Of a DNA stretch of 64,000 nucleotides, positions 24,054 to 54,465 are shown piece after piece. Source of the DNA: Acidimicrobiia bacterium (lineage in GTDB: Bacteria; Actinomycetota; Acidimicrobiia; Spongiisociales; ZC4RG35). The DNA lies in contig OZ244856.1 of assembly GCA_965220995.1 (NCBI GenBank), forward strand, positions 97,407 to 161,406. Direction: 5' to 3'. Every line of letters starts with the position of its first letter. Within the stretch, counting starts at the first letter, position 1. The notes under the pieces are model-generated. The model was given only the letters and a program-made list of their open reading frames with translations. It ran no database searches and had not been told where the DNA came from. The position numbers and the translations under genes are program-made.

Positions 24054-24064
24054 ATCTTCGCTCC

Positions 24065-38315: not shown

Positions 38316-40508
38316 ATGTTTACTTTTCTGAGCCGGTTCCGGCGTCAGACAGCAGTCCTGACAGCCCTGGCACTGGTAGCCAGCGTCCTGGTCACCGTAC
38401 CAGTGTCGGCTGCTGATGACGATCCGGAGGCGAATTTTGAGGCTACTTTCAGTGCCTGTGAGGGTTTGGATGCGGCTGGGTTCGAGGATGTTCCCACCGG
38501 TCATTCCAGTGCAGGGTCGATTGATTGTATTGCGTACTACGGGATTACCAGGGGAACTTCGGCTACTACCTACTCGCCGCTGATGTCGGTCACTCGTGAG
38601 CACATGGCCCTGTTCTTGACCCGTTTGGCCGCTCGGGTGGGTATCGACATGACTGCCGATCCCGATGATGCGGGGTTCACTGACATTGGTGAACTACCTG
38701 ATGAGTCGCAGACCGCCATCAATCAGTTGGCCGATCTCGACATCACCACAGGAAAGTCAGCTACTACGTATGCACCGGCTGATTCGGTGACCCGCGGCGA
38801 GATGGCACTGTTCATCTCCAGGTTGATGGACTTGATGGATCCGATGGCCGATGGTGATACCCCTTATGGGTATATCCCATCTGATGTGGTCACGAACGAA
38901 GATGACCATGACATTGGTTCTCCGTTCGCCAACGACTTGAAGGGGTCGGTAGTCACCGTCGCGGACGCAGTTGAGCAGTTGTGGGAGTTGGGTGTGGCTA
39001 CGGGTATCTCCGCCACGGCCTATGCTCCGAACGCCTCGATCACCCGCGCGGCGATGGCTGACTTCATGGCTGCTGTGTTGAATCATTCCAACGCTCGCCC
39101 GGCCGGTGTGACCATGCAGGCGACCTCGACTGAGGACTTCGGAACCGCCAGTTCCACACTTGCCATTTCTTATCGGGATGAGAACTTCGCGCCCATGGTG
39201 GACACATCGATCAAGATCTTCGATACCGAAGACGTTGGAGACTTTGACGAGGACGGCAAGTGCGCTGCTGCTGCTGACTGCGAATGGACCGATAGCGAAA
39301 CTCTCACTAACGCTGCAGGAAATATCTTCCGCGCTGTGTCCGTTGCACTTGAGACGGGCAACGCTGCCAATGACAACACCTGGTATGCGTGGATGGGTGC
39401 TGAGAATGGTGATGAGTTTGTGATGGACCAGTCCGGCGAGGCGTCTATAACCGTCTCCGCTAAACCCCAATCCCTTGGGATGAGGATCATGGCGGACATT
39501 AGCGAAGAGGCCCGCGGCACTGGTGCTACAGGGGCAGGCATCAACGTCAACCTAGCTAAGGACAGTTCGGTCCTTCTCACCGTCCAACTCGTTGACGAGG
39601 CATCCGACAGTACGACGATCGCCAATGCTGATGCTGTGGCGAAAGCTGGCATCGAACTCAGTATCGCCTGGAGTCAGGTCCCCGGTGGAACCGTCCACCC
39701 GGCTCCTGCTCCGGTCACCACTGACGAAAACGGTCAGGCAACCTTCACCATAACCGGACCTGAGGACGACGACGACACGCTACAGACCAGGACTGACACC
39801 ATTACAGTCACGGGCAATGTTGACGGCGACGAAACCACAGGGACCAATGGCGATGAGAGTGCAGCCATTGAGATTATATGGACCGATGCTGCTGCTGAGG
39901 TAATAAAAGGTGAGGCCGAAACTCCCGACTATGTCCTAGTCGTAGATGACGAGGTGAGTGTTCGAGCTACGGTCACCTACTACGACCAGTACGGCAACCC
40001 TGCTGGCGGTGGTCAAAATGTTGACATCACGATCAACAACACCGACGACAACGATGACAGTGGGACGACCACCAAGACGGATCGGACTATTGACAGTCGC
40101 GGCACGGCGGGCTACCGCGGTTCTGTTTCGGCAGAAGCCGGTCACTCGATCACCGTTTCCTTCGCCAACGGCCCAACCAATGACGGTACCACTACCGGTA
40201 CAGCAGTTTCTGTAGACTCTGTTGAGGGCATTGAAGTGTTGAGGCACGCGCATAAGAACGACAACACGACCACGACGGCGGCAGTTACCATCTACGCCGA
40301 TGATGATGTGTTCCACTTCAGCGCTGACGACAGCGAGGCCCTGTACAGCTACGATTCGGACGATGTGTTTATCACCGGCGGAGCTACCGGAGGACAGACG
40401 GTCAGCATGGACAAGTTCGAAGAAATGGTTGAGGACGGTGCCACGGTACAGGTTGTGTCCTACAGCCCAGACGGACCAAGCGTCTTTACTGTGACCGCAA
40501 CAAGCTAA
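38316..40508 (+). CDS. S-layer-homology (SLH) domain surface protein, with three N-terminal SLH domains and Ig-like/adhesin-like repeats
   Basis: A signal peptide, then three SLH modules ('FEDVPTGHSSAGSIDCIAYYGITRG..', 'FTDIGELPDESQTAINQLADLDITTG..', 'FANDLKGSV..LWELGVATGIS..'), followed by a Thr/Asp/Gly-rich beta region. Confidence 0.8.
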   Translation: MFTFLSRFRRQTAVLTALALVASVLVTVPVSAADDDPEANFEATFSACEGLDAAGFEDVPTGHSSAGSIDCIAYYGITRGTSATTYSPLMSVTREHMALFLTRLAARVGIDMTADPDDAGFTDIGELPDESQTAINQLADLDITTGKSATTYAPADSVTRGEMALFISRLMDLMDPMADGDTPYGYIPSDVVTNEDDHDIGSPFANDLKGSVVTVADAVEQLWELGVATGISATAYAPNASITRAAMADFMAAVLNHSNARPAGVTMQATSTEDFGTASSTLAISYRDENFAPMVDTSIKIFDTEDVGDFDEDGKCAAAADCEWTDSETLTNAAGNIFRAVSVALETGNAANDNTWYAWMGAENGDEFVMDQSGEASITVSAKPQSLGMRIMADISEEARGTGATGAGINVNLAKDSSVLLTVQLVDEASDSTTIANADAVAKAGIELSIAWSQVPGGTVHPAPAPVTTDENGQATFTITGPEDDDDTLQTRTDTITVTGNVDGDETTGTNGDESAAIEIIWTDAAAEVIKGEAETPDYVLVVDDEVSVRATVTYYDQYGNPAGGGQNVDITINNTDDNDDSGTTTKTDRTIDSRGTAGYRGSVSAEAGHSITVSFANGPTNDGTTTGTAVSVDSVEGIEVLRHAHKNDNTTTTAAVTIYADDDVFHFSADDSEALYSYDSDDVFITGGATGGQTVSMDKFEEMVEDGATVQVVSYSPDGPSVFTVTATS

Positions 40509-40534
40509 ACCGTCCACATCATCTAACAAAGAGA

Positions 40535-40560
40535 TGGAGGCTCCCCAACCGGGGAGCCTC
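40535..40560. terminator. Perfect hairpin GGAGGCTCCCC-aacc-GGGGAGCCTCC between the two convergent SLH genes (bidirectional terminator candidate)
   Basis: 11-bp stem and 4-nt loop in the 77-bp gap between the convergent genes. Confidence 0.5.
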
Positions 40561-40585
40561 CATCAGATAGTCAAGTGTTTTCTGT

Positions 40586-42859
40586 TTATGAACCGACCGC
40601 GGTGACTCGGAAAATGCTGACACCGTCATCGTCGTAGAACACGACCTCGACAGAACCCGCAGTTCCGCCAGTACCTGCCTTGATCAGTCCTTCGAATTTC
40701 TCGAGGGTGATACGCCTGTCTTCGCCGGCGGCGGGGGCGTCGTCGCCGCTAGTGAGGCCGTTGATGAAGGTATCGCCGTCATCATAGCTGTACAGCGCAC
40801 CCGTGATGCGGAACCGGTCCTCCTTGTCGTAGACCGCAGTAATGGGAGTAGAGGCACCCGTACTGTCGTCATCGGCATGTCTCACTGGGACCACCGAACC
40901 GTCAGCAACCTCTGGAGTAGTGACATCATTTTCGTCGGCCGCGTCCCGGAGTGTATAGGTCACTTCTAAGACTGTGCCCAGAACCCCATCAAGGGTGCGG
41001 GTCCATCTGGCCATGCCTCTGCTACTCACGGTCCTTGTGTCGGAATTATCAGCCCCGGTACCGATGGCGATCGCCACATTTTCGCCCTTGCCGGCGGGGT
41101 TGCCGTACTGGTCGTAGAACGACACCGAGGCTCGGACGGTCACCTTGTTCTGGCCGCTCAAGAAAGCGTAAGGATCAGTGCTTCCCTTACCGGAACCCAC
41201 AGCTGCCCGAGAGATAGCGGTGCCACTCCCGTCTCCGACGGTGTCAGTGGCACCGGCCGGAAGCAGGGTCGGATTGGAGTCTGTCCAGACGATCCTGGTT
41301 ACCACGGTCTCATCATTACCGCCTGTTGCTGTGTACTCATCCGTCGGATCAGCCACATCATTCTGAGTGGTGCCGTTGTCGTTCACATCGGCTTCGAAGG
41401 TAATCATGTCGACCCTGTCAACATCAACGGCGCCCTTGGTGGACTTCGGACCGGAGGCGGTGTAAGTCACCATACCGTCATCATCGGTCTTCATCGGAGC
41501 AGGCCCCGGATGCAGGCGACTTGTGCCCTGGTTCACAGTAATGCTGACTTCAACACCGGACTTGGCCACCGGTTCACCAGTACCGTCGACCAACTGCGCG
41601 GTGACAGTGACACTGCTTGTAGCGTCTATATCCACCGTGTTCTCATTGGTGGAGTTCTCGTTGATGTCAGTAGTGACCTTCAGGTGCACAGCATCAGTGG
41701 TGGAAGACAGAGTTACTGTCGCATGGGGGGACGTGTCGACGTCGAAGTCGTTCTCGTCAGCGTCGGCATCACCCATCCACGCGTAGTAGGTGTTCATCTT
41801 CCCGTTTTCAGCGATGCCGTCCTGGAAGATGTTGCCCGAAACGTCAGTCAGCGACTCGTCATCGGTCCACGCGCAGTCAGAAGCCTCTCCACAGCCACCG
41901 TCCTCGTTGAACGAACCAACCGTGTCGCTGTCGAAGACCTTGACGGACACATCGACCATCGGCATGAACATGTCATCCCGATAGGACACAGCAATGGTGG
42001 TAGAGATGTCGCCGAAGTCCGAGGTGCTTGCAGCCTGGATGGTCACACCGGCCGGTCGGGCGTTGGAGTGATCCAACACTCCAGCCATGAAACCGGCCAT
42101 CGACGCACGGGTGATAGAAGCCGCCGGACCATACGAAGTGTCAGAAAGACCAGAAGCAACACCCAACTCCCACAACGCCGTTATCGCGTCATAGGTCGAC
42201 TTCGTCACCGAACCCAAATCAGTAAACGGCGACTCCGCCTTCTTGGTCTCATCCGCGTCAGTATCATCGTCGTCTTCGACATCAACCACATCTTCGGGGG
42301 TAAACCCAAACGGGGTGTCACCATCGGCCATCGGATCCATCTGATCCATCAACCGGCTGATGAACAAAGCCATGTGACCACGCTGCACCGGATCAGAAGG
42401 TGAATAGGTGGTGTCAGACGTGCCCTGGGTGATCCCAAGATCGGCCAACTGGTTGATCGCGGTCTGTGACTCGTCCGACAGGTCACCGATATCGGTGAAA
42501 CCCGCATCGTCAGGATCGGAAGCAACCTCGATTCCCACCAACCCGGCCAGGCGAGTCAAAAACAGGGCCATATGCTCACGCGTCACCGACATCAACGGCG
42601 AATACGTGGTAGCCGACGTTCCCAGAGTGATCCCGTAATAGGCAATACAGTCGATGTCACCCGCGTTTTCATGATTCGCCGGTACGTCGGTGAAGTCCGA
42701 GGTACCCGCACCAACACACGCTGAGAACGTCGCCGTGTAATCCGCTTTCGGATCGTCGTCAGCAGCCGACACTGGTACGGCGACCAGCACACTGGCCACC
42801 AGTGCCAGGGCTGTCAGGACTGCTGTCTGACGCCGGAACCGGCTCAGAAAAGTAAACAT
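40586..42859 (-). CDS. SLH-domain surface protein, a convergent paralog of the 38316-40508 gene
   Basis: The first 35 or so residues are identical (MFTFLSRFRRQTAVLTALALVASVLV.VPVSAADDDP), and paralogy extends through three SLH domains and about 350 aa before the C-terminal halves diverge. Confidence 0.8.
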   Translation of the reverse strand: MFTFLSRFRRQTAVLTALALVASVLVAVPVSAADDDPKADYTATFSACVGAGTSDFTDVPANHENAGDIDCIAYYGITLGTSATTYSPLMSVTREHMALFLTRLAGLVGIEVASDPDDAGFTDIGDLSDESQTAINQLADLGITQGTSDTTYSPSDPVQRGHMALFISRLMDQMDPMADGDTPFGFTPEDVVDVEDDDDTDADETKKAESPFTDLGSVTKSTYDAITALWELGVASGLSDTSYGPAASITRASMAGFMAGVLDHSNARPAGVTIQAASTSDFGDISTTIAVSYRDDMFMPMVDVSVKVFDSDTVGSFNEDGGCGEASDCAWTDDESLTDVSGNIFQDGIAENGKMNTYYAWMGDADADENDFDVDTSPHATVTLSSTTDAVHLKVTTDINENSTNENTVDIDATSSVTVTAQLVDGTGEPVAKSGVEVSITVNQGTSRLHPGPAPMKTDDDGMVTYTASGPKSTKGAVDVDRVDMITFEADVNDNGTTQNDVADPTDEYTATGGNDETVVTRIVWTDSNPTLLPAGATDTVGDGSGTAISRAAVGSGKGSTDPYAFLSGQNKVTVRASVSFYDQYGNPAGKGENVAIAIGTGADNSDTRTVSSRGMARWTRTLDGVLGTVLEVTYTLRDAADENDVTTPEVADGSVVPVRHADDDSTGASTPITAVYDKEDRFRITGALYSYDDGDTFINGLTSGDDAPAAGEDRRITLEKFEGLIKAGTGGTAGSVEVVFYDDDGVSIFRVTAVGS

Positions 42860-42977
42860 AAGTTCACTTATGCATGCATGAGTTACAACTCGTCAAAGGC
42901 GCCAAGACATGATCGTAAGGCTGACGGGGAAGGGTCGGTTCGGCGATTCTGGTTTTCCGGCGCTATCTGATGGCAGA

Positions 42978-44087
42978 TCAGGAACGGACCGCGGCGATGA
43001 TCTCTTCCACAGACAGGCCGTCCAATCCCAGTCGGTCCAGGGTGCGGCCCTGGGCGATCTCAGACTCCAACCCGGCCGCAGACGCCAGATTCAGCAGGGC
43101 CTCCGCCACCGGGGTCTTCACGCCCGCCACCTTGGCCAACTCCACCATGGGAAGTAACCCATAGCCGAAATCCTCGGTGTAATAGCGGTGACCGAGAGAA
43201 TCGGGAGCCATGATCCGGGCGTTGGCTGAGCCGCCCGAGATGGCGCCCTGCAGGTCTGATTGATCGGCATCGGCCTCCACCGTGCCGATCGCCAACATCT
43301 CCTCCATCAGGGATCCCAGACGGTATCCGAAGGCTTGCGCCACGGCCAGGCGTTCCCGGTCTACGCGTTCCATAACCGAAGCCACCCCGGAAGTCATCCC
43401 CTCCACGTAGAAACGAAAATCGCCGCCCGTGGCCTCCACCCAGGCGGCGGCCATTATCGCTCCGGGGGGATGAAGGACCATATTCACCTCCGCCAATCCC
43501 ACCGCCAGCACATCGGGCTGACGGATAGCACCCGGATAGAGATGGCCGACCAGATCCAATGTCGCTTCCCCACCGGGAAGGCACCCGACCAACATCCGGG
43601 CGGCCGCTCCGGTGATGTTCACCAACCACTGCGGGTCCACCTCCCCCGCCCGATTGTTTGCACCCCCGGCTGTGGCGCGGACCGTATAGGGAAGAGTGGA
43701 ACATTCGGCAATGGCGGGCAGGCACTCGACACCGCTATCCTGCATCACCTTCGCCACCTCCAAGGCGCCTCCCAGGTGACCGGGCGCCAACACCACGGGG
43801 TCCTCGCATCCCACCCGCGCCAAATGTCGGGCCACCTCCCGGTGAGCAGTGGAGGGCAGGCAAACCAGCACTCCGGCTGCTCCCCTCACCGCCTCTGCCA
43901 CGCTGTTGGTGCAGTTGACCGGCATCACCCCATCACCGAACACTCCTTGGTACGCCAGGTGAAACCCGGCAACAGGCTCTTTCGGCAACGTGCGCCGCCA
44001 CCAAACTACGTCGAACCCTCGCAGCGTCAGGTCGACTGTCGCCGCCATGCCCCCCGCTCCCCCTCCCATCACCACAATCCGGGTCAC
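42978..44087 (-). CDS. NAD(P)-dependent opine (octopine/nopaline-type) dehydrogenase-family protein
   Basis: N-terminal Rossmann 'IVVMGGGAGG' and a C-terminal 'YYTEDFGYGLLP' region typical of the opine dehydrogenase family. Confidence 0.75.
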   Translation of the reverse strand: MTRIVVMGGGAGGMAATVDLTLRGFDVVWWRRTLPKEPVAGFHLAYQGVFGDGVMPVNCTNSVAEAVRGAAGVLVCLPSTAHREVARHLARVGCEDPVVLAPGHLGGALEVAKVMQDSGVECLPAIAECSTLPYTVRATAGGANNRAGEVDPQWLVNITGAAARMLVGCLPGGEATLDLVGHLYPGAIRQPDVLAVGLAEVNMVLHPPGAIMAAAWVEATGGDFRFYVEGMTSGVASVMERVDRERLAVAQAFGYRLGSLMEEMLAIGTVEADADQSDLQGAISGGSANARIMAPDSLGHRYYTEDFGYGLLPMVELAKVAGVKTPVAEALLNLASAAGLESEIAQGRTLDRLGLDGLSVEEIIAAVRS

Positions 44088-44097
44088 GGGTAGTTGC

Positions 44098-45288
44098 TCA
44101 CTGACCGGCGCCCAGGTCCAAGTGTGTGCCGGCGGCCACCGAGTACTCTTCCACCTTGGCCGAATCGACCTTCACTCCCAGGCCGGGACCCCGGGGAACC
44201 ATCACCCGCCCCTCCTCGAAACCGAACGCCTCGGTGATCAGGTCGTCGGTGTAATAGATACCGGCAATCTCGGGCCGGGCTGAACCCTGGGGGCCGGAAA
44301 CCGGGCAAACGCTGGGAAGGATGGCGTTTTCGGCGGCCGCGCCCAGCGCCAGATTGGCGGCGTTGCCGATGCCGGTTTCGATCGATCCGCCGATGTCGCA
44401 CATCATGCCCAGGCGACGGGCGGTCTCGGCCTGCTGGCGGGCCCGGAACAAACCGCCGGGTTTGGTGACATAGCACGAAAAGTATTCGGCGGCGCCCAAT
44501 TCAACCAGTTCCCAGATGTCCTCGGTGGTCCAAGCCGACTCATCGGCCATGACCGGGGTCTCCACCCGCTGGGCCACCGCCGCCAAACCCTCCGCCCCGG
44601 CCACCGGCTGTTCGCACAGCATGATGTCGTACTCCTCCTGGGCGCGAGTGACCCGAACGGCCTCCGCCACATGGGAGTAACCCTCGTTTCCATCCACTCT
44701 GATCTTGATCCAGGGGCCCACCAACTCACGCAGTCGTCGCACCAATTCCACATCCCGGGTGGGATCAAGACCCGTTTTGCATTTGATGGTCAAAGCCCCT
44801 TCGGACACCGCCTGCTCCGCCTCGGCCAGACATTTTTCCACCGGCATGATCCCCAGAGAATGCGCCAACTCGATACCCCGACGGTGAGCACCACCCAGCA
44901 GCGTGGACACCCCCACCCCCATGGCATGGCCGGCCGCGTCGTAGCAGGCCATATCGATCATGGCCTTGGCGTAGGGATGACCCTTCACTGCTTTGTCCAT
45001 CCGCGAGTGGACCACCGCGATCTCCCGGGGATCACAGCCGGCCACCGCCGGTAGCAGATAATCGGAAGCCACGATCCGGACCGTCTCCGGTGATTCCCCG
45101 TAATACCTCATGGCCGACCCACCCCAGGTGATTCCCGCCGGGGCCTCTCCCCATCCCACTACTCCCCGGTCGGTGCCCAGGCGGAGAATGGCGTGGTGGC
45201 CGATGGGGGCGGTCATCTTGGAAGCCCAGGTGTGGTGGCGCCGGGTGGGAAGGGCAACTATGTAGATGGTGGCCTCGGTGATTCTCAT
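44098..45288 (-). CDS. Enolase-superfamily enzyme (mandelate racemase / muconate lactonizing enzyme / dipeptide epimerase-like)
   Basis: Capping domain plus a TIM barrel with 'KIRVDGNEGYS', 'MLCEQPV' and metal-ligand Asp/Glu positions. Confidence 0.8.
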   Translation of the reverse strand: MRITEATIYIVALPTRRHHTWASKMTAPIGHHAILRLGTDRGVVGWGEAPAGITWGGSAMRYYGESPETVRIVASDYLLPAVAGCDPREIAVVHSRMDKAVKGHPYAKAMIDMACYDAAGHAMGVGVSTLLGGAHRRGIELAHSLGIMPVEKCLAEAEQAVSEGALTIKCKTGLDPTRDVELVRRLRELVGPWIKIRVDGNEGYSHVAEAVRVTRAQEEYDIMLCEQPVAGAEGLAAVAQRVETPVMADESAWTTEDIWELVELGAAEYFSCYVTKPGGLFRARQQAETARRLGMMCDIGGSIETGIGNAANLALGAAAENAILPSVCPVSGPQGSARPEIAGIYYTDDLITEAFGFEEGRVMVPRGPGLGVKVDSAKVEEYSVAAGTHLDLGAGQ

Positions 45289-46280
45289 GTCGGTTCCGTT
45301 TCATAAAGTTCGATCTCGTTGCCGTCGGGGTCGGCCACATAGACGGTGAGTCCATAGGGGCCGGGCCCCAGGGGACGCACGATCCGGTAACCCGCCTCCT
45401 CCACCCGCCTCTCCCATTTGGCCACCCCCGCCACCTCGAATGCGAAATGATCCACCTGACCGCCCCGGCCGGTTCCCCCTTCGGTGAGACCCAGACCCTC
45501 CTCGGTACCGATGAAGCGACGCCCGTCGCGAAAAGGGGCGCGGTTCTTCACGGTGAATCCCAACAGGTCGACATAGAAGCGCTCGGCAGCCTCCAGATCG
45601 GTGGTCTCCAACAGCACATGCCGTATCCCTTTCACCACCGGACGGCGACTGCTCTCCAACCAGGCCTTCACCTGCTCCGAGGTGGCGAGATGGGCCAAGT
45701 AATGCGACCACACCTCCAAAGCCGAGGGTTCCCACCGGGGGCGCACCCCCGCGATGCAGTCGGTGACGGCCACCACATCGTAATCCCGCAGATAGGCCTC
45801 ACGAATGGTGGTCTCCACACAGGCATTCAAGGTCACCCCGGTGATGAAAAGGGTCCGTGCCCCCAACATGCGCAACAGGGCCTCGAGGCGGGTTTCGTAG
45901 AAGGCTCCGAAACGGTGTTTTTGCACCACCATGGTCGGGTCATCAGCCAGGTCGGCCAGCTCCTCCACGATCTCCGCATCCCAGCTGCCCGCCAGGGCCG
46001 CCACCCGGGAACGGCGCTCGGTGTGAGAGGGGAGTCGCTTGCGTTGCCTACCCCGGTCGGGTTGCAGATGCGCCTGAACCGTCCAGATCACCGGAAGGCT
46101 CGCCTCCCCGAAGGTACGCACCAGCCCAGCGACCGGCTCGTAGACATGGTGGGTAGGTCTGACATCCACCCCTGATTCGCCCAGCGTCCCTTGGGGATGA
46201 CAGAAGGCATTCTGCAGGTCGATAACCAGCAAGGCTGACCCCTGGGGATCAAGCCTCAGCAGATCGGTCTCCCCGCTCAT
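45285..46280 (-). CDS. Fusion protein: N-terminal isochorismatase-like hydrolase and C-terminal VOC (glyoxalase/bleomycin-resistance/dioxygenase) domain
   Basis: N-terminal 'ALLVIDLQNAF' with 'LFITGVTLNACVETT' (Asp/Cys catalytic context). C-terminal 'RHVLLETTDLEAAERFYVDLLGF...DHFAFEV...YVADPDGNEIELYE' VOC signatures. Overlaps both neighbouring genes by 4 nt. Confidence 0.7.
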   Translation of the reverse strand: MSGETDLLRLDPQGSALLVIDLQNAFCHPQGTLGESGVDVRPTHHVYEPVAGLVRTFGEASLPVIWTVQAHLQPDRGRQRKRLPSHTERRSRVAALAGSWDAEIVEELADLADDPTMVVQKHRFGAFYETRLEALLRMLGARTLFITGVTLNACVETTIREAYLRDYDVVAVTDCIAGVRPRWEPSALEVWSHYLAHLATSEQVKAWLESSRRPVVKGIRHVLLETTDLEAAERFYVDLLGFTVKNRAPFRDGRRFIGTEEGLGLTEGGTGRGGQVDHFAFEVAGVAKWERRVEEAGYRIVRPLGPGPYGLTVYVADPDGNEIELYETEPT

Positions 46281-46471
46281 ACGTCGGTTCGGTCGGGACC
46301 GAGCACCCCCGCCAGACCCCAGCTGTCCCGGGGGACATCGTGGATGATGACGTGCAAGGCATCAGGCCGGGCATCGGCATGTTCCACCATCGCCTCGGTG
46401 ATGGACTTCACCAACCGGCGCTTTTGCTCGACGGTTCTTCCTTCCCACATTTCCACGGTCACAACCGGCAC
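46277..46471 (-). CDS. 4-oxalocrotonate tautomerase-family protein
   Basis: 64 aa, with an N-terminal catalytic Pro1 context 'MPVVTVEMWEGRTVEQKRRLVKSITEAM'. Confidence 0.7.
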   Translation of the reverse strand: MPVVTVEMWEGRTVEQKRRLVKSITEAMVEHADARPDALHVIIHDVPRDSWGLAGVLGPDRTDV

Positions 46472-46556
46472 CAGGAGACTCCCTTCATGGCATTCACCCC
46501 CTTAAGTTAGTTTTCCTGGCTACGGGAGTGTGGCGGTAGTCCGGCCCCGGCGGGGC

Positions 46557-46841
46557 TCACCGAAAGTCGAAGCGAGGAGCTTCTGTGTACGGTTCCGAGA
46601 CGGTCGCCTCGATTAAATCATTCCACTGCCTTCTGGTGGTTTCCTTCTCATAGGTAAAGAATCGGGAACACCCTTGGAGATCGGCGGAGCCGAGATGGAT
46701 AGCATCGGCCGATCTCACTCCGCGTAATCCCTCCCGCCGGGCCCGTCGCACGGCATCCGACAGTTTTCGGATCGTGACCTCGCCGCCGAGGCGGAACGTC
46801 ACATGGTCTTCAGACATTCGCAGGGATATTAACGGAGCCAC
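46557..46841 (-). pseudogene. Possible truncated PIN-domain (VapC-like) remnant
   Basis: 'RSADAIHLGSADLQGCSRFFTYEKE' resembles the C-terminal half of VapC, but the N-terminal catalytic Asp region and any antitoxin are missing. Confidence 0.25.
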
Positions 46842-47099
46842 TTTGCATGCTCCTTCGCCTCAGTCTCAACCACCCAGGACTTCCCCACAACAGGACCCAA
46901 CCAACCGCAAGACTTATGCGCCCTTCATCGTAGAGGCGGTGAATCACCCGGCAGGCAGGGGAGGCTGCGCGGACCGTCCGGGCCGATTCAAAGCTCGGGC
47001 CAACGCACCCGACCCGGACCGGGTAACACCGACACCAAATAGTGGATCCCGAAACAAGGAGCAATGTCCCCCGACCAACTCCGATAGCCTTTCCACATC

Positions 47100-48893
47100 A
47101 TGCAACCCACCACCGCCGCGGGTTCCCACCCGTCCTTTGTTTGGGAGCTTGCGATCCTGGGCGACCGCCTGGCCGGCTTGTCCTTGGCCGCGGAGGCGGC
47201 GGCCAGCGGGTTGGAACGGGTGTTGGTGCTGTCCCCCTCCGATCCCGGGATGTACCCCAGCCGTTTCTCGGCGCCGGGAATCACCGTTCGCTACCAAACG
47301 GTGTCCCGACGGATCCGCCCGGTGGCCGGCCCCTTTGTGGTGGTGGAAACCTCCACCGGACCGGTGACGGCAAGAAAGGTGGTGATAGGCCCGTCTCTTC
47401 CTTCACCGGACCACCGCTCCCCGCTTATCACGGTGGATCCGTCGGTTTCCCACCTGGTCTACACCCACCCCACCCAATTGCAGGAGCCGCCGGGAGACGT
47501 GGTGGTGATGGGAGAGGGCGACGAACCGGTGGAGTGGACCCTGGACCTCTTGACCAAGGGGGCAAAGGTGGTCTTGTGCATCAGGCATACCGAGTTCGGC
47601 AAGATGTCGTTTCTGGCCCGACGAACCGTGCGCCGGCTGGAGGCACAGCGCCAGATCACCGTCTTCTGGCGAGCCCGACCCACCCGGGTGTACGACGTGG
47701 CGGGTTATCCGATGGTGGCTTTCGACAACCGCCAGACCCCCGACCTGCAGTTCGATCAGGTGCTGCTCTCGGGGCCCAATCCCCCGGTGGCCCGGTTGCT
47801 GGAAAGCTCCGGCATAGAAATCGAGCAAGCGTCGCCTGCGGTTCATCTGCTGACCCACGGCGACGAACCTGGCCCAGACCCCGAGGGAGTGGTCACCCTA
47901 CCCGCCGACCGGGCGTGGGAAAAAATGAGGTCCCGCTACTTTCCTTCCCTGCCGACCTCGCCTCACCATGCCACGCCGGTTACCGATGGCCGGCGCCTGT
48001 CCCATCTGGAAGACCGCTTCTACAACGCCACCATCACCTGGTTCCGACGAGTCAATCCCGACCTGTGGATCGTCAGGGTGCGGCCCGACCAGCGCGACGC
48101 TCCGCTGGTGCCCGGACAATACGCCACTCTGGGACTGGGCTATTGGGAGCCCCGGGTGGATGGGGCGGTCGATCGGATGGCCAGAGACGAGCGACTGGTT
48201 CGCCGATCATATTCCATTTCTTCCCGCATATTCAACTCCCAGGGATATCTGACCGATCCGGTCTATGAGGAGCACCTTGAGTTCTACATCGTGTTGGTGC
48301 CACCCAGTCCCGACCGTCTGCCGGGACTCACCCCCCGACTTGCCCTCAAGCACGAGGGGGACCGGATCTATCTGGGTCCCAGAATGGCCGGGCGCTACAC
48401 ACTGTCGGGGGTGACCGACCCCTTTTCCGACGTGTTGTTTCTGGCCACCGGCACCGGAGAGGCCCCTCACAACGCCATGGTGGTGGAACTGTTCCGCAGG
48501 GGGCATCAGGGTCGGGTGATCTCGGTGGTGTCGGTCCGCTACGCCGCTGATCTGGGATATGCGGCCCGACACCGAGCTTTGGAAGAGCGCTTCCCCAACT
48601 ATCGATACATGCCGCTGGTGACTCGGGAAGACGCCGCCGGGACGCTGCGGATGCGCATCCAGCAACTGATCGCCGAGGACCGTCTCACCAGGGAAACCGG
48701 ATTGGAGTTGGACCCTGCCCGACTGAAGGTTTTCATGTGCGGGAACCCGGCCATGATCGGAGTGCCGGAGTGGCTCGATGAACAGCCCACCTTCGGTGAC
48801 ACGGTCGGTGTGGCCCAACTTCTGGCCGAGCGAGGGTTTACCCTCCCTCGGCATGGCGTCAAATCAAATGTTCACTATGAAGAGTATTGGTAG
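47100..48893 (+). CDS. Two-domain flavoprotein: N-terminal FAD/NAD(P)-binding Rossmann-like module fused to a ferredoxin-NADP+ reductase (FNR)-type oxidoreductase domain
   Basis: C-terminal FNR motifs 'RRSYSISS' (FAD), 'GTGEAP' (NAD(P)H) and 'PGQYATLGL'. N-terminal 'VWELAILGDRLAG' dinucleotide-binding-like motif. Its stop overlaps the next gene's start. Confidence 0.65.
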   Translation: MQPTTAAGSHPSFVWELAILGDRLAGLSLAAEAAASGLERVLVLSPSDPGMYPSRFSAPGITVRYQTVSRRIRPVAGPFVVVETSTGPVTARKVVIGPSLPSPDHRSPLITVDPSVSHLVYTHPTQLQEPPGDVVVMGEGDEPVEWTLDLLTKGAKVVLCIRHTEFGKMSFLARRTVRRLEAQRQITVFWRARPTRVYDVAGYPMVAFDNRQTPDLQFDQVLLSGPNPPVARLLESSGIEIEQASPAVHLLTHGDEPGPDPEGVVTLPADRAWEKMRSRYFPSLPTSPHHATPVTDGRRLSHLEDRFYNATITWFRRVNPDLWIVRVRPDQRDAPLVPGQYATLGLGYWEPRVDGAVDRMARDERLVRRSYSISSRIFNSQGYLTDPVYEEHLEFYIVLVPPSPDRLPGLTPRLALKHEGDRIYLGPRMAGRYTLSGVTDPFSDVLFLATGTGEAPHNAMVVELFRRGHQGRVISVVSVRYAADLGYAARHRALEERFPNYRYMPLVTREDAAGTLRMRIQQLIAEDRLTRETGLELDPARLKVFMCGNPAMIGVPEWLDEQPTFGDTVGVAQLLAERGFTLPRHGVKSNVHYEEYW

Positions 48894-49804
48894 AGCCTGA
48901 CGTGTCGGTTCCCTGGACCCAAAGGGTGATCGCGGTGGTGGGAGGGGACCGCCGGGAGCAGGAGATCGCCCGTCGGGCCGCCGCCACCGGCGCCACGGTG
49001 CGCGCCCACGGGTTCCCCTGGCCCGGCCACGGTATTCCCAAGGTTGTGAACTGTTCCACTCCCATCGCAGCGTTGGCAGGCGCCCACTTCGGGCTGCTTC
49101 CCATCCCCGGCATTGCCCCGAATGGCGCTCTCTTCGCACCCTCGGCTCCGCAACCGATTTTCGTCGGGGTCACGGCGTTGGAAGCCATGGCCGAGGGCGC
49201 CCACCTAATCCTGGGCGCTTCCGACCGGCGCCTGCGGGAGGCGGCCGAGCAGGTGGGCATTGGCATCTCCGAATACGAGGATGACCGCGAGTTGATGTTG
49301 CGCAGGGGTCCGGCGATCGTGGAGGGGGCGGTGGGAAAGATTATCGAACTAACCGAGATCACCATCCACAACGCCAGGGTGGGAGTGGTCGGGCAGGGAA
49401 CCATCGGCTCTCTGCTCACTCGCACCCTGGTATTGCTGGGAGCCCGCGTCCTGGTGGCGGCCCGCAGTCCCGTCCAGCGGGCGGCATCGGAGACGATCGG
49501 CGCATCCGCGGTTCCTCTTCACCGGTTTTCCGACCATGTCCATCGTCTGGATATGCTGGTTTCCACCGTTCCTGCGCCGGTGGTGGGGGAAGACCTGCTG
49601 CGGCGCCTTCCGAAGGGAAGTCTGGTGATGGACCTGGCGGCCCCGCCGGGAGGAGTTGACCTGAGCCGGGCGGCGGCGCTGGGCCACGTCACCTGCTGGG
49701 CCAGAGGTTTGGGCGACCGGGCGCCGGTCACGGTTGGGGCATCCCAATGGGACGGCATACGCAAGAGAATCGAAGAGATCGAAGAGGCAAGGAATGCAGG
49801 CTGA
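48887..49804 (+). CDS. DpaA-like protein (dipicolinate synthase subunit A / SpoVFA family; NAD(P)-binding)
   Basis: Collinear similarity to B. subtilis SpoVFA: 'RVIAVVGGDRREQEIARR' vs 'KKIAVIGGDARQLEIIRK', 'VGVVGQGTIGSLLTRTLVLLGARVLVAARS' vs 'VAVLGLGRTGMTIARTFAALGANVKVGARS', 'LVMDLAAPPGGVDL' vs 'LILDLASRPGGTDF'. Confidence 0.75.
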   Translation: MVEPDVSVPWTQRVIAVVGGDRREQEIARRAAATGATVRAHGFPWPGHGIPKVVNCSTPIAALAGAHFGLLPIPGIAPNGALFAPSAPQPIFVGVTALEAMAEGAHLILGASDRRLREAAEQVGIGISEYEDDRELMLRRGPAIVEGAVGKIIELTEITIHNARVGVVGQGTIGSLLTRTLVLLGARVLVAARSPVQRAASETIGASAVPLHRFSDHVHRLDMLVSTVPAPVVGEDLLRRLPKGSLVMDLAAPPGGVDLSRAAALGHVTCWARGLGDRAPVTVGASQWDGIRKRIEEIEEARNAG

Positions 49805-51140
49805 TCTGGTGATACGCAACGCCCGGGTGGTAACCCACACGGGAGAATTTCGGGGAGGAGTCTCCGTGGTGGGAGAACAGATTTCGGTGGTCGGCCAGGA
49901 CACCGATCTGCCCCCCGCCCGGCGAGTAATTGACGCCGACGGTCTGGTGCTGATGCCGGGAGTGATCGACCCCCATTGTCACCTGGGCGTCAACTATCCC
50001 TACGACGAGGATATGGACACCGAGACGGCCGCGGCAGCCCGCGGGGGGATCACCACGGTTCTTCTGTACATACGCAATCTCGAGCCTTCCTACCTGCCCT
50101 TCTATCGGAACCGTCGCCGACGGGGCGAAGCGGTGGCCCGGATCGACTTTGGGTTTCACTTCGGGATCCAACGGGAGGAACACATCGCGGAGATCCCCTT
50201 GATCGCGCAGGAAACCGGGGTGCAGTCATTCAAATGCTATTTCGGCTACGAGCAGCAGAACCCCATCGGCATAGTCCCGGCGGACGACGGTTGGGTTTAC
50301 ACCGCAATGACCAAAATACGCGAGCTTCCCAAAGGGGTTATCTCGATCCACTGCGAGAACACCGAGATCGCCCGATGGATCAAAAAGTCGGTGCAGGCCA
50401 CCGGTCGCCAGGATCTGGGCGCCTACACCGAGTCGCGGCCGGCTCTCTGCGAAGAGGAGACCATCGCCCGGATGATATTTCTGGCCGAACGCACCGGGTG
50501 CCCGTTGTACGTGGTGCACACCAGTGTGGCCGCCGGGCCCCCCATGGCCGCCCGGGCCCGCGCCCGGGGGGTGGATGTCACCATCGAAACCTGCCCTCAC
50601 TATCTGGTGCGCACCGCCTACGACCCCGACCTGGACATGCGGGCCAAGATCTCCCCTCCTCTGCGGGACCGAGAGGAACAGGAGGGCTTATGGGAAGGGA
50701 TCTTCGCCGGGCAGGTGGGAGCGATCGGCTCGGACCATGTTCCGTTCTTTCCCAAGAAGGGAGAAGACCTGTGGGAAGAGAAGCCGGGCGTGGTTTCCTT
50801 TCCGTGGGAGTTGGCGCTGCTCTTGGAGCACGGAGTGCACCGTCGGGGCCTTTCGCTCCCCGATCTGGTCAGGATGAACTCCTACGGACCGGCGCGGCGC
50901 TTCGGTTTCTATCCTCGCAAGGGCGCGATCGCCCCCGGGGCCGACGCCGATCTGGTGATGGTGGACCTCGATCAGGTGGATACGGTCCGGCACACCGGCA
51001 ACGGCACCTGCATCTACGAGGGCATGAAGCTTCGGGGATGGCCGGTGATGACGGTCAGCCGGGGACGGGTGGTCTTCGAAGGCGGGGAGGTCGATCCCGA
51101 TTCCCTGGGCCACGGCCGGTGCGTAACCCGACCCGACTGA
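49794..51140 (+). CDS. D-hydantoinase / dihydropyrimidinase
   Basis: 'LMPGVIDPHCHLG' HxH motif, a carbamylated-Lys region 'QSFKCYFGY', and His/Asp ligands. The start (MQADLVIRNARVV) overlaps the DpaA-like stop. Confidence 0.85.
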   Translation: MQADLVIRNARVVTHTGEFRGGVSVVGEQISVVGQDTDLPPARRVIDADGLVLMPGVIDPHCHLGVNYPYDEDMDTETAAAARGGITTVLLYIRNLEPSYLPFYRNRRRRGEAVARIDFGFHFGIQREEHIAEIPLIAQETGVQSFKCYFGYEQQNPIGIVPADDGWVYTAMTKIRELPKGVISIHCENTEIARWIKKSVQATGRQDLGAYTESRPALCEEETIARMIFLAERTGCPLYVVHTSVAAGPPMAARARARGVDVTIETCPHYLVRTAYDPDLDMRAKISPPLRDREEQEGLWEGIFAGQVGAIGSDHVPFFPKKGEDLWEEKPGVVSFPWELALLLEHGVHRRGLSLPDLVRMNSYGPARRFGFYPRKGAIAPGADADLVMVDLDQVDTVRHTGNGTCIYEGMKLRGWPVMTVSRGRVVFEGGEVDPDSLGHGRCVTRPD

Positions 51141-51213: not shown

Positions 51214-51810
51214 ATGAGAATCCTGGTGGTGTGGGCTCACCCCCTGGCCGACAGCTACTCGGCGGCCCTCAAGGACCGGGCCGTGGAGGCCCTGGCGAGG
51301 GCCGGGCACGACATCGACCTCCTGGACCTCTACGCCGAGGAGTTCGACCCGGTCCTGTCCGCCCAAGAACGCCGGGACTACCACGAAATCGGCCCGAACC
51401 TGGCCAATGTCTCGGCCTATGTGGAAAGGCTCCGAGCCGCCGAGGGGTTGTTGTTGATCTTCCCCACCTGGAGCTTCGGTTACCCGGCCATCCTCACCGG
51501 GTGGCTGCAGCGGGTGTGGATCCCTGGAGTGGCCTTCGGACTGCGGGAAGAAGGCGGCCCCATCATCCGGGGAATTCTCAACATCCGGAGAGTGGCGGCA
51601 GTGACCACCACCGGCTCACCATGGTGGTATGTCCTGGCGGTGGGCAACCCGGCCAAACGGGTCCTCAAACGCGGTCACCGGGCCATGTTCGCCCGGGGGT
51701 GTCGAGTCAAGTGGCTGGACCTGAACAACATGAACAAGGACTCGCCGAACAAGCGAAAAAAGTTCCTGGGCCGAGTGGAGCGCACCCTGCCATCCTTCTT
51801 TTCCGATTGA
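51214..51810 (+). CDS. Flavodoxin-like fold NAD(P)H-dependent oxidoreductase (NQO1/quinone reductase-like)
   Basis: 'MRILVVWAHPLADSYSAAL' start and overall pattern typical of the NAD(P)H dehydrogenase (quinone)/FMN reductase family. Confidence 0.7.
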   Translation: MRILVVWAHPLADSYSAALKDRAVEALARAGHDIDLLDLYAEEFDPVLSAQERRDYHEIGPNLANVSAYVERLRAAEGLLLIFPTWSFGYPAILTGWLQRVWIPGVAFGLREEGGPIIRGILNIRRVAAVTTTGSPWWYVLAVGNPAKRVLKRGHRAMFARGCRVKWLDLNNMNKDSPNKRKKFLGRVERTLPSFFSD

Positions 51811-54361: not shown

Positions 54362-54465
54362 TCAGGATTCCCCCAACTGTCCGCGCAAAGGGTAACCACC
54401 GGGAAGGTGCCATGCCCCACCCCGGTATCGTTGGGCGGAGCAAGTCAAAGGAGCCGAACCAAGCA

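Follow-up and report, generated by a model that had tools for sequence, protein, structure and literature searches.

A conserved gene cluster around an isochorismatase-VOC fusion gene that may serve the catabolism of a nitrogen-rich ring compound

On its minus strand, a 64,000-nucleotide stretch of an Acidimicrobiia bacterium genome (contig OZ244856.1, assembly GCA_965220995.1; hereafter the window) carries four tightly packed genes, encoding a tautomerase, a fusion of an isochorismatase-like cysteine hydrolase with a VOC domain, an enolase-superfamily (MLE-type) enzyme and an opine dehydrogenase (Table 1). Which substrate do these enzymes act on, and do the four genes make up a complete pathway? 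Open reading frame and Pfam analyses place the four genes at 42978-46471, with the coordinates and families proposed in an earlier note on this DNA, and every one of the four proteins scores above the Pfam gathering cut-off. A 4-nt overlap throughout, also proposed there, holds where the tautomerase gene meets the fusion gene and where the fusion gene meets the MLE gene (ATGA is shared at both), but at the third junction a 10-nt gap lies between the stop codon of the MLE gene (TGA, 44100..44098) and the start of the opine dehydrogenase gene (GTG, 44087). A frame begun at another GTG, one overlapping the MLE TGA, meets a stop codon after five codons. The gap is identical in a close relative (L003), and the Actinomadura pair has a 4-nt overlap. 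In 87/87 loci a tautomerase homologue is encoded immediately 5' of the fusion gene and in the same orientation, and in 62/62 the MLE gene adjoins the opine dehydrogenase gene; that the four genes form a single functional unit, as had been suggested, is supported.

Table 1. Features of the operon and its surroundings in the window, with presence among the compared loci where counted
Feature	Coordinates	Strand	Description and evidence	Loci
Opine-dehydrogenase-family NAD(P) oxidoreductase	42978..44087	-	369 aa; Pfam Octopine_DH E=3e-39	51/58
Enolase-superfamily (MLE subgroup) enzyme	44098..45288	-	396 aa; Pfam MR_MLE_N + MR_MLE_C, E=6e-45	52/58
Isochorismatase-VOC fusion	45285..46280	-	331 aa; Pfam Isochorismatase + Glyoxalase/VOC	
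Tautomerase	46277..46471	-	64 aa; GTG start preceded by AAGGGAG; Pfam Tautomerase E=5e-21	
Flavoprotein-like protein, divergent	47100..48893	+	597 aa; Pyr_redox_3 + FNR-type NAD_binding_1 (Pfam, NCBIfam)	
DpaA-like (dipicolinate synthase subunit A-like) NAD(P) dehydrogenase	48887..49804	+	305 aa; Pfam DpaA_N E=3e-17	54/58
Cyclic amidohydrolase	49734..51140	+	hydantoinase/dihydropyrimidinase/allantoinase/dihydroorotase type; NCBIfam, PDB matches	54/58
Flavodoxin_2 / NAD(P)H oxidoreductase-like protein	51214..51810	+	198 aa; Pfam	
Creatinase_N + M24 hydrolase	53245..54420	-	degenerate metal site; Pfam	48/58
RibD_C-like protein	54450..55353	+	pyrimidine reductase / DHFR-like fold; start approximate; Pfam RibD_C	
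TRZ/ATZ-type amidohydrolase	55369..56832	+	487 aa; deaminase-like or ring-cleaving; Pfam Amidohydro_1 E=3e-51	46/58
Cytosine-deaminase-like amidohydrolase (Amidohydro_3)	56840..58046	+	start approximate; Pfam + NCBIfam	
ABC transporter ATPase	58021..58806	+	3' of amidohydrolases; Pfam	
ABC transporter permease	58807..59616	+	3' of amidohydrolases; Pfam	

The two-domain protein is genuine. Pfam assigns residues 15-203 to an isochorismatase domain (E=4.5e-37) and residues 218-325 to a single glyoxalase/VOC domain (E=1.4e-16), with a linker of about 14 residues between them, and a frameshift or assembly artefact is ruled out, the frame being unbroken and the best 120 of 1,107 homologues all being full-length proteins of 299-346 aa with both domains. 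The family forms one tight group (identity at least about 50%) found in Actinomycetota, alpha-, beta- and gamma-Proteobacteria and Opitutales. Because one full-length fused entry (P0141) covers it in the 50%-identity representative library, the isochorismatase plus VOC architecture is the hallmark of one orthologous, widespread family; it is thus unusual, as first described, only in the limited sense of marking a single family, and its conservation extends to over 150 species-level genomes. Among 23 homologues from several phyla, D21 and C154 of the hydrolase triad (D21/K121/C154) and H221, H278 and E324 of the VOC domain are invariant, with K121 conserved to at least 90%. By sequence and predicted fold the hydrolase domain is closest to RutB, BiuH, TrtA and N-carbamoylsarcosine amidase (1nba and 3eef), and the fold of the VOC domain matches Ni-GloA2. 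On one metagenomic contig the VOC domain has a gene of its own, situated between those for the M24 and MLE-type proteins, making it a pathway component by itself.

The other three operon enzymes also retain their characteristic residues. The tautomerase, a member of the 4-oxalocrotonate tautomerase (4-OT) family, has Pro1 right after the start codon and keeps Arg11, with His where 4-OT has Arg39, and reaches 64 bits with TIGR00013 (cut-off 56.9). In the MLE-type enzyme, whose orthologues in other phyla are 64-72% identical, K169-x-K171, D199/E226/D249 and K276 are invariant in 24 orthologues; in the opine dehydrogenase, so are GxGxxG, H206, R301 and D306 in 19. The sole PDB relative of the latter is the Arthrobacter N-(1-D-carboxyethyl)-L-norvaline dehydrogenase 1bg6 (E=1.6e-40), which matches over the full length and shares the conserved His, Arg and Asp, but is distant in sequence, and the gene studied here sits in a hydrolase-rich cluster.

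Taken by name, these families resemble a fragment of an aromatic meta- or ortho-cleavage pathway, in which the VOC domain would be an extradiol dioxygenase, the 4-OT-type protein a 4-oxalocrotonate tautomerase and the MLE-type protein a muconate cycloisomerase. The top NCBIfam model of the last is indeed the muconate cycloisomerase subfamily (TIGR02534), and the tautomerase clears a 2-hydroxymuconate tautomerase model, if only by a borderline 2 bits. However, the MLE-type protein scores 210 bits, far below the cut-off of 335, and the VOC portion is a single domain of about 110 aa, closest to glyoxalase I, whereas extradiol dioxygenases are usually two-domain and larger. Neither a ring-hydroxylating oxygenase nor a muconolactone isomerase or enol-lactonase occurs among the annotated neighbours, and the conserved neighbours are C-N hydrolases; we regard such a role as very improbable.

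Those neighbours show that the four genes are not, as had been assumed, the whole system: the operon makes up about half of a cluster that comprises 8 to 12 genes and is conserved in several bacterial phyla. We compared 58 loci of at least 18 kb each (14 from the Acidimicrobiia clade and 44 others), from Actinomycetota, alpha-, beta- and gamma-Proteobacteria and Opitutales. In most of them the operon genes are accompanied by DpaA-like, cyclic amidohydrolase, M24 and TRZ/ATZ genes (Table 1), the usual order including opine dehydrogenase, DpaA-like and cyclic amidohydrolase genes, and all four are present in the window, on the divergent strand and downstream. In gammaproteobacterial loci all nine genes lie in one contiguous array. 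Plasmids of Aminobacter, Shinella and Phyllobacterium carry the cluster along with a GntR regulator, RidA, an ABC transporter and PntAB, the last suggesting a demand for NADPH; the Aminobacter cluster additionally holds a DAO-type dehydrogenase, malate synthase G and a GlcG-like gene, which suggest glyoxylate as an end product. Transporters of nucleobase/pyrimidine type (an NCS1 permease in Actinomadura, a ThiY-like binding protein) also occur, and a Rhodospirillales cluster adjoins a classical hydantoinase A/B and small isochorismatase module. The two halves of the cluster can be separated, as shown by a few loci (L048 and L065) where the tautomerase and fusion genes have only M24 and TRZ/ATZ genes nearby.

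This conservation bears on a second explanation, in which the operon by itself would be a complete pathway for a linear N-substituted amino acid (an opine, an N-acyl or N-carbamoyl amino acid, or a dipeptide), the amidohydrolases belonging elsewhere. Such a pathway would suit the tight spacing of the operon, the kinship of the dehydrogenase with 1bg6 and the presence of N-succinyl/N-acyl amino-acid racemases and dipeptide epimerases among the relatives of the MLE subgroup. It seems unlikely nevertheless, as the DpaA-like, cyclic amidohydrolase, M24 and TRZ/ATZ genes are kept alongside in most loci, often in one operon, and as some loci (L005 and L067) lack the MLE gene, or both MLE and opine dehydrogenase genes, yet retain the tautomerase, fusion, DpaA-like and cyclic amidohydrolase genes.

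The DpaA-like dehydrogenase reaches 182 bits against the NCBIfam DpsA model (cut-off 261). The cyclic amidohydrolase, for which an ATG at 49794 agrees better with homologues than the start of the longest frame (49734), has the L-hydantoinase 1gkr as its top PDB match (E=1.6e-59), scores 287, 282 and 212 bits with the allantoinase, dihydropyrimidinase and ErtD models, all below their cut-offs, and has invariant H81xH83, K167, H206, H262 and D334. The M24 protein, whose true start is probably the ATG at 54360, resembles prolidases (E=1e-31) more closely in sequence than it does creatinase (E=1e-15), and alignment with the prolidase 5cdl shows E/G/H/E/K in place of the D/D/H/E/E ligands; this pattern, with three of five metal ligands lost, recurs in 28/31 orthologues. 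The TRZ/ATZ-type protein (orthologues 60-67% identical; PDB relatives MTA/SAH deaminases and AtzA) reaches 249 bits with its top NCBIfam model, the cut-off being 522, and may not be a deaminase, since an alignment read by eye places no Glu at the usual HxxE position. The cytosine-deaminase-like gene, which recurs in 23/67 loci outside the clade and in the rhizobial plasmid clusters, is likely, though less certainly, a cluster member. Three genes are specific to the Acidimicrobiia clade: the flavoprotein-like gene (13/14 clade loci, 0/44 others), which is a cluster member only there, the Flavodoxin_2 gene (14/14 and 0/44) and the RibD_C-like gene (14/14), whose Pfam match covers residues 214-440 of a long frame (53992..55353) and whose L003 homologue has 300 aa. 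The ABC ATPase and permease are possibly an uptake system; in many loci the cluster has related ABC genes beside it, along with an NMT1/ThiY-like binding protein, and homologues of at least 40% identity occur in 18/44 (ATPase) and 11/44 (permease) non-clade loci and in 0/14 clade loci.

Opine dehydrogenases can also act reductively, as CntM does, and the cluster could in principle make an opine-type metallophore or other secondary amine. The ABC transporters and PntAB (NADPH supply) alongside the cluster and the CobW/COG0523 metallochaperone genes near it in 13 loci would fit such a biosynthesis, as would the opine dehydrogenase itself. The annotated neighbours, however, lack both a nicotianamine-synthase-like and an amino-acid racemase partner, the cluster is dominated by five C-N hydrolases, and the GntR/FCD regulators, RidA, aldehyde dehydrogenase and malate synthase suit catabolism; COG0523 is equally well explained by metallation of the three zinc amidohydrolases. 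We regard such a biosynthetic role as highly doubtful.

We consider it somewhat probable that the cluster, of which the four genes would form the downstream half, catabolizes a nitrogen-rich ring compound, a cyclic ureide, amidine or guanidine of the pyrimidine, hydantoin or creatinine kind. An N-carbamoyl or ureido-type substrate, one of those first proposed, is plausible given the ureide-hydrolase-like sequence and fold of the cysteine-hydrolase domain and the conserved hydantoinase/dihydropyrimidinase-like neighbour. The other members of the cluster favour a nitrogen-rich ring over an aromatic amide or a free opine, the latter having been suggested solely by the family of the dehydrogenase. 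The earlier note could assign no known pathway, and this stands for the curated family models, solved structures and literature searched: apart from the borderline tautomerase model, no cluster protein reaches an NCBIfam equivalog cut-off, and the literature search found no described pathway fitting the cluster. Homology searches returned no matching pathway for nicotinate or proline-betaine catabolism, and a search for ligand clues found no riboswitch or other hint.

Alignments show catalytic residues intact in the operon enzymes and the cyclic amidohydrolase, and a degenerate metal site in the M24 protein. From enzyme families and gene linkage we infer the following order of steps. The compound would enter through the NMT1/ThiY-like ABC system or the NCS1 permease, and the TRZ/ATZ-type and cytosine-deaminase-like amidohydrolases would remove exocyclic amino or imino groups. 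The DpaA-like dehydrogenase, perhaps with the opine dehydrogenase, would then oxidize or reduce a C-N or C=C bond adjacent to a carboxylate; neither family is known to reduce a heteroaromatic ring. The hydantoinase/dihydropyrimidinase-like enzyme would open the ring to a ureido (N-carbamoyl) acid, the metal-poor creatinase-like M24 protein could cut an amidino- or carbamoyl-type C-N bond, and the cysteine-hydrolase domain, by analogy with RutB, BiuH and N-carbamoylsarcosine amidase, would take off a carbamoyl/ureido or amide group. The tautomerase might convert the resulting enamine or enol to its imine or keto form, in a step that parallels the one following RutB, and the fused metal-binding VOC domain, at a guess, could catalyze a further proton-transfer isomerization of the same intermediate. 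The MLE-type enzyme would abstract a proton alpha to the carboxylate, in the simplest form epimerizing or racemizing a ureido or amino acid so that both stereoisomers become usable, and the opine dehydrogenase would oxidize or reduce the N-CH(COOH) bond, the skeleton leaving as a 2-oxo acid, possibly glyoxylate or pyruvate.

Several known systems share parts of this scheme. The RutB/RutC step of the Rut pathway, in which a ureidoacrylate amidohydrolase acts and its aminoacrylate product is then dealt with, resembles the fusion and tautomerase pair: RutB is the best solved relative of the hydrolase domain (8bkd, E=5e-22) and has a similar fold, and a tautomerase is always co-encoded here where Rut needs RutC, with RidA on the rhizobial plasmids. 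Unlike Rut, the cluster has no RutA/RutF flavin monooxygenase partners, its ring opening would be hydrolytic (by the cyclic amidohydrolase) and its hydrolase is fused to a VOC domain, with 89.8 bits against the RutB equivalog cut-off of 378. Hydantoin utilization likewise combines a cyclic amidohydrolase (here nearest to 1gkr), a decarbamoylating hydrolase, an enzyme capable of racemizing the alpha carbon and an NCS1 permease (here in Actinomadura). There, however, the known decarbamoylases are M20- or nitrilase-family enzymes and the known racemase is of the Asp/Glu/hydantoin racemase family, whereas the cluster gives these roles to isochorismatase-like and MLE-type enzymes, and its two dehydrogenases, M24, TRZ/ATZ, tautomerase and VOC parts have no counterpart there. 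A dehydrogenase, a cyclic amidohydrolase and a decarbamoylase together constitute a reaction module that recurs in pyrimidine and purine metabolism (PMC4016543), which is matched by the opine dehydrogenase, DpaA-like, cyclic amidohydrolase order together with the ureide hydrolase. In reductive pyrimidine catabolism, though, the dehydrogenases are PydA/PyrD-family flavoenzymes, which those of the cluster are not, the decarbamoylase is non-homologous, and the dihydropyrimidinase model has a cut-off of 393, well above the score obtained here. The reductive uric acid/2,8-dioxopurine pathway of gut anaerobes (XdhD, YgfK, SsnA, HyuA, YgeW/UacY, YgeY, YgeX) uses a reductase, an SsnA-type amidohydrolase, a hydantoinase and two ureido-cleaving enzymes (PMC12507026); the likeness lies in reduction followed by a TRZ/ATZ-related amidohydrolase and a hydantoinase, and in two ureido groups stripped stepwise from a carboxylate-bearing amino acid. 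But the cluster has no XdhD, YgfK, YgeW, YqeA or YgeX homologues, scores 107 bits with the SsnA model (cut-off 444) and is carried mostly by aerobic bacteria of soil, water and sponge.

Creatinine degradation shares four family names with the cluster: the M24 (creatinase) family, albeit with an incomplete metal site, cytosine/creatinine deaminase, hydantoinase and N-carbamoylsarcosine amidase, of which the cluster encodes relatives or look-alikes. A pathway specifically for creatinine, creatine or N-methylhydantoin would run from creatinine to N-methylhydantoin by the cytosine-deaminase-like enzyme, on to N-carbamoylsarcosine by an ATP-independent hydantoinase and to sarcosine by the cysteine hydrolase, the opine-type dehydrogenase finally yielding glyoxylate and methylamine. 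The sponge- and coral-associated Acidimicrobiia that are the window's close relatives, and the DAO enzyme and malate synthase G added in Aminobacter, are consistent with it. Creatinine, N-methylhydantoin, N-carbamoylsarcosine and sarcosine are all achiral, however, which leaves no role for the MLE-type enzyme, the most conserved of all, and the DpaA-like, TRZ/ATZ and VOC parts are unaccounted for. No cluster member is an orthologue by score, including the M24 protein with respect to creatinase, and the ATP-dependent hydantoinase A/B is missing from the cluster itself; in L005 a canonical hydantoinase A/B and amidase module adjoins the cluster and is not replaced by it. We hold this narrower pathway to be quite unlikely, and the broader class of nitrogen-rich ring compounds to be the better description of the substrate. 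In the window itself, the divergent promoter region carries an insertion of about 550 bp, by which local regulation may be disturbed.

The four minus-strand genes that the earlier note had read from the sequence (tautomerase, isochorismatase-VOC fusion, an enolase-superfamily enzyme hereafter called MLE, and opine dehydrogenase) are borne out, with their families, by ORF calls and Pfam, lying head to tail with every Pfam score above its gathering cut-off. Only the detail that all four overlap by 4 nt was wrong: the tautomerase/fusion and fusion/MLE junctions are indeed ATGA overlaps, whereas the MLE stop codon (TGA, 44100..44098) is separated from the dehydrogenase start codon (GTG, 44087) by a 10-nt gap. 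The same gap is found in the close relative L003, whereas this junction is a 4-nt overlap in Actinomadura. A promoter and terminator scan gave no promoter-like site in 42600..47300 and terminator-like sites at chance level; the inference of an operon therefore rests only on gene spacing and conserved synteny. For the window and seven diverse loci, a search of Rfam for a riboswitch that might give a clue to the ligand returned no family at gathering score except an unrelated actinobacterial sRNA in locus L041.

Features of the cluster and of a second C-N hydrolase group in the window; the last column gives occurrence in the 58 loci that are 18 kb or longer and identity relative to the window protein
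Feature	Coordinates	Strand	Details	Occurrence; identity
Tautomerase	46471..46277	minus	64 aa; Pfam Tautomerase, E=5e-21	
Fusion, first domain	46280..45285	minus	331 aa; Pfam Isochorismatase, residues 15-203, E=4.5e-37	
Fusion, second domain	46280..45285	minus	Pfam Glyoxalase/VOC, residues 218-325, E=1.4e-16	
MLE gene	45288..44098	minus	396 aa; Pfam MR_MLE_N + MR_MLE_C, E=6e-45	52/58; 64-72% outside the window's own clade
Opine dehydrogenase family gene	44087..42978	minus	369 aa; Pfam Octopine_DH, E=3e-39	51/58; 43-53%
FNR-type flavoprotein gene	47100..48893	plus	divergent from operon	
DpaA-like dehydrogenase	48887..49804	plus		54/58
Cyclic amidohydrolase	49734 or 49794..51140	plus	hydantoinase/dihydropyrimidinase-like	54/58; 60-75%
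Flavodoxin_2 gene	51214..51810	plus		
M24 gene	54420..53245	minus	Creatinase_N/M24 hydrolase	48/58
RibD_C-like gene	to 55353			
TRZ/ATZ-type amidohydrolase	55369..56832			46/58; 60-67%
Cytosine-deaminase-like gene	to 58046			
ABC transporter genes	58021..59616			
Amidase	19027..20529	minus	second C-N hydrolase group	
Second Creatinase_N/M24 gene	22887..24053	minus	second C-N hydrolase group	
Stand-alone isochorismatase	24065..24862	minus	second C-N hydrolase group	
Aminotransferase and 2-hydroxyacid dehydrogenase	within 19027..32193		second C-N hydrolase group	
Two further Amidohydro_1 genes	29550..30794, 30835..32193		second C-N hydrolase group	

The divergent intergenic region between the tautomerase and flavoprotein genes measures 628 bp in the window and only approximately 80-110 bp in close relatives (L008, L009 and L012). 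An insertion of about 550 bp (46530..47075) parts the conserved motifs 'AAGGCTATCGG' and 'CCTAAATTTAGA'-like; no second copy of it was found within the window. A 94-aa ORF inside the insertion (46557..46841, minus strand) has no family support, and nothing confirms an initial impression that it resembles a PIN-domain remnant.

The fusion, which the earlier note had considered unusual, is genuine: its ORF is continuous and full-length two-domain homologues are common, which rules out a frameshift or an assembly artefact. A search of 5.8 billion proteins yielded 1,107 homologues, and the best 120 of these are 299-346 aa long with both domains present; sources include Actinomadura, Amycolatopsis, Saccharopolyspora, Microbacteriaceae, Thermoleophilaceae, Rhodospirillales and many metagenomes. 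Scanning one genome per species gave 152 loci encoding a relative of the fusion, 80 of which were fetched. A library of representatives at 50% identity contains 37 matches at E<=1e-30, with a single full-length fused one (P0141, 52% identical), so that the architecture belongs to one tight orthologous family and is not a recurrent invention. The same hydrolase may also occur in other multi-domain architectures, as suggested by proteins of approximately 450-470 aa (P0150-P0158), each with two or three stretches that match the isochorismatase domain at 31-36% identity. A further paralogue, the stand-alone isochorismatase P0147 (locus L093), is more distant and comes from a 1-kb contig; it is uninformative.

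The first domain is placed by its sequence in the isochorismatase-like cysteine hydrolase superfamily (PF00857, 128.2 bits against a cut-off of 27), and an alignment of 23 homologues shows an Asp-Lys-Cys triad with invariant D21 and C154 and with K121 conserved to at least 90%. By analogy its function can be likened to that of RutB, BiuH and N-carbamoylsarcosine amidase, but the fusion misses the NCBIfam equivalog cut-offs widely (RutB, 89.8 against 377.95; BiuH, 78.2 against 370). The second domain belongs to the VOC superfamily (PF00903, 61.4 bits against 20.6), its putative metal ligands H221, H278 and E324 being invariant in the 23 aligned members. It is probably not a glyoxalase I, as it scores 25.4 against a cut-off of 120 with TIGR00068 and would lack the complete His/Glu/His/Glu ligand set, E267 at the second ligand position not being conserved in the family. 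In an AlphaFold model of the fusion (mean pLDDT 77, about 90 in the VOC domain) the first domain matches the folds of biuret hydrolase, RutB, triuret hydrolase, N-carbamoylsarcosine amidase and maleamate amidase, and the second is closest to the Ni-glyoxalase GloA2 (4mtq); no PDB match among the 50 best listed covers both domains. On one short metagenomic contig the VOC domain is encoded by a separate gene (52% identical) between the M24 and MLE genes of the same type of cluster, which argues that this domain has a job of its own in the pathway.

A tautomerase gene lies directly upstream of the fusion gene in all 87 loci of our tblastn survey. Its product, with proline directly after the start codon, is a member of the 4-oxalocrotonate tautomerase family (TIGR00013, 64 against 56.9), has histidine in place of Arg39 of 4-OT when the sequence is read by eye, and falls short of the DmpI equivalog (56.3 against 70).

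The third gene product can be assigned to the MLE subgroup of the enolase superfamily, K169xK171, D199/E226/D249 and K276 being invariant in 24 orthologues. Its best PDB match is 3i4k, at only E=1.3e-45, its homologues carry generic names in their source records, and it differs from muconate and chloromuconate cycloisomerases in staying below the cut-off of TIGR02534 (210.3 bits against 334.95). Such below-cut-off scores, together with the neighbouring genes, contradict a role of these enzymes in aromatic ring cleavage, which we regard as highly improbable. Membership of the fourth protein in the opine dehydrogenase family is indicated by its Octopine_DH score (134.8 bits against 30) and by the invariant G8xG10xxG12, H206, R301 and D306. 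Synthesis of an opine metallophore, a further role considered, is at odds with the dominance of hydrolases and is scarcely credible.

The same neighbour genes recur in the Pfam-annotated contexts of all four distant genomes compared, and the subsequent survey of the 87 loci shows them to be kept together across phyla. The MLE gene adjoins the opine dehydrogenase family gene in 62/62 loci, the order opine dehydrogenase, DpaA-like dehydrogenase, cyclic amidohydrolase is contiguous in 47/63, and several gammaproteobacterial loci have the full set of nine genes in a single array. This conserved linkage to ring-opening enzymes contradicts a self-contained operon for an opine or N-acyl-amino-acid, which we therefore think unlikely. 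Other recurrent neighbours code for a cytosine-deaminase-like amidohydrolase, an SDR, an aldehyde dehydrogenase, a hydroxypyruvate-isomerase-like protein, GntR/FCD regulators, a COG0523 GTPase and an NMT1/ThiY-like ABC system, and an NCS1 permease gene lies beside the cluster in Actinomadura. According to RefSeq annotation, plasmids of Aminobacter, Shinella and Phyllobacterium carry the same set with RidA and the PntAB transhydrogenase; the Aminobacter plasmid also codes for a DAO-type dehydrogenase, malate synthase G and a GlcG-like protein. Linkage of the flavoprotein, Flavodoxin_2 and RibD_C genes to the cluster is restricted to the window's own clade, which consists of metagenome-assembled Acidimicrobiia with fusion proteins 78-90% identical to that of the window; judging by isolate names, several of these genomes apparently come from sponges and corals.

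Two further associations come from other loci. A 227-256-aa protein outside any Pfam family (L088 13122..13805, L085 542..1312, L078 9065..9784), annotated as 'resolvase' or hypothetical and in one case weakly matched by PhyH, is encoded with the cluster in 21 proteobacterial loci, frequently immediately upstream of the tautomerase gene, and is absent from the window and from actinobacterial loci. In a Rhodospirillales MAG (L005, 10764..18601) a classical hydantoinase A/B pair, a small stand-alone isochorismatase and more amidohydrolases lie beside the cluster, the hydantoinase module and the cluster having an NMT1-type transporter in common; this neighbour looks like a creatinine/N-methylhydantoin-type module.

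Catalytic residues appear to be kept in every conserved cluster enzyme, the M24 protein being unusual. The cyclic amidohydrolase belongs to its superfamily, since the residues of the binuclear site (H81xH83, K167, H206, H262, D334) are invariant, and it is equally distant from allantoinase, dihydropyrimidinase, hydantoinases and ErtD, its equivalog scores all being below cut-off (allantoinase, 287 against 631; dihydropyrimidinase, 282 against 393; another, 273 against 358). When the M24 protein is aligned to prolidase, E/G/H/E/K occupies the D/D/H/E/E positions of the dinuclear metal ligands, so that three of five are replaced, and this pattern is found in 28/31 orthologues. The loss is reminiscent of the creatinase branch of the fold, which is metal-free, but in sequence the protein is closer to prolidases (E=1e-31) than to creatinases (1e-15 to 1e-11).

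In total the cluster holds five C-N hydrolases, two NAD(P) dehydrogenases, the proton-abstracting MLE enzyme, the tautomerase and the VOC domain. The opine dehydrogenase and DpaA families act on C-N bonds next to carboxylates. Along with GntR-type repressors and nucleobase/pyrimidine-type transporters, this inventory gives a catabolic profile, and the cluster most likely serves the breakdown of a nitrogen-rich ring compound. The combination of dehydrogenase, cyclic amidohydrolase and decarbamoylase is known to recur as a module in the metabolism of pyrimidines and purines (PMC4016543), and the recently described reductive uric acid pathway follows this logic with different enzymes (PMC12507026). 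What has been observed is gene content, linkage and residue conservation; from the catabolic profile and the known module we infer every chemical step in the following order. The divergent genes would prepare the ring and then open it to a ureido acid, from which the cysteine-hydrolase domain would take off the ureido/carbamoyl or an amide group. The enamine or enol so formed would be processed by the tautomerase, perhaps with the VOC domain; the MLE enzyme would equilibrate stereoisomers at the alpha-carbon, and the opine dehydrogenase family enzyme would cut or form the N-CH(COOH) bond to give a 2-oxo acid, which may be glyoxylate, as the malate synthase insertion in Aminobacter hints.

A pathway specific for creatinine would account for four of the enzymes but, its intermediates being achiral, leaves the MLE enzyme without a role and the DpaA-like, TRZ/ATZ and VOC parts unexplained, and we consider it decidedly unlikely. 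In known pathways flavoenzymes do the ring or C-N redox work. We tentatively suggest, as a possibility we would not yet back, that the cluster is a widespread new mineralisation route for a common nitrogen heterocycle (pyrimidine-, hydantoin-, creatinine- or pterin-like), in which two non-flavin NAD(P) dehydrogenases (opine dehydrogenase family and DpaA-like) do this work and the tautomerase and fusion form a dedicated unit that removes the ureido group and processes the unstable enamine. Substrates considered are orotate/dihydroorotate, iso-orotate, allantoin, hydantoins from guanine oxidation, xanthine (by a hydrolytic route), pterin-6-carboxylate, the thiamine pyrimidine, proline-containing diketopiperazines and dipicolinate.

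The earlier note could assign no known pathway, and this still stands: searches with combinations of enzyme names found no paper on this gene set in open-access full text (subscription journals may differ), and no cluster protein reaches an NCBIfam equivalog cut-off except for a borderline tautomerase model (57.1 bits against 55). Source annotations are generic or wrong, as with 'isochorismatase family protein', 'muconate cycloisomerase', 'dipicolinate synthase subunit DpsA', 'Xaa-Pro peptidase' and the name 'ureidoacrylate peracid hydrolase' used by JGI records. We rate the cluster as a putative one for ureide/heterocycle catabolism, in which the combination of enzyme families is unprecedented. 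The finding is real and, given conservation across phyla, somewhat better than the earlier note thought; an uncharacterised catabolic cluster is an ordinary kind of unknown and overturns no expectation. If a common nitrogen-rich ring compound is indeed degraded, a gap would be filled in the recycling of organic nitrogen by soil, freshwater and sponge-associated bacteria, and at least eight large protein families, today annotated generically or wrongly, would gain functions; the label 'creatinase' in genomes of sponge symbionts may be a misannotation of this kind. For enzyme discovery the fusion, together with its obligate tautomerase partner, offers a clean target.

Elsewhere in the window, two convergently oriented genes (38316..42859), whose products of 730 and 757 aa carry SLH (S-layer homology) domains, lie directly downstream of the dehydrogenase gene, in a stretch with a G+C content of 0.56-0.57 against 0.61-0.65 around it; two relatives with annotated neighbours (L003 and L004) have other genes in their place. 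A 1,383-aa ORF with no Pfam match (33537..37688) is preceded by an AAA_14/DUF4143 ATPase gene (32278..33540). The second group of C-N hydrolase genes occupies 19027..32193. The stretch 6555..11026 codes for a Bmp/PnrA-like (nucleoside-type) ABC binding protein, an ABC ATPase and a carbon-nitrogen hydrolase (10181..11026), after which comes an ISL3-family transposase gene (11311..12606, minus strand).
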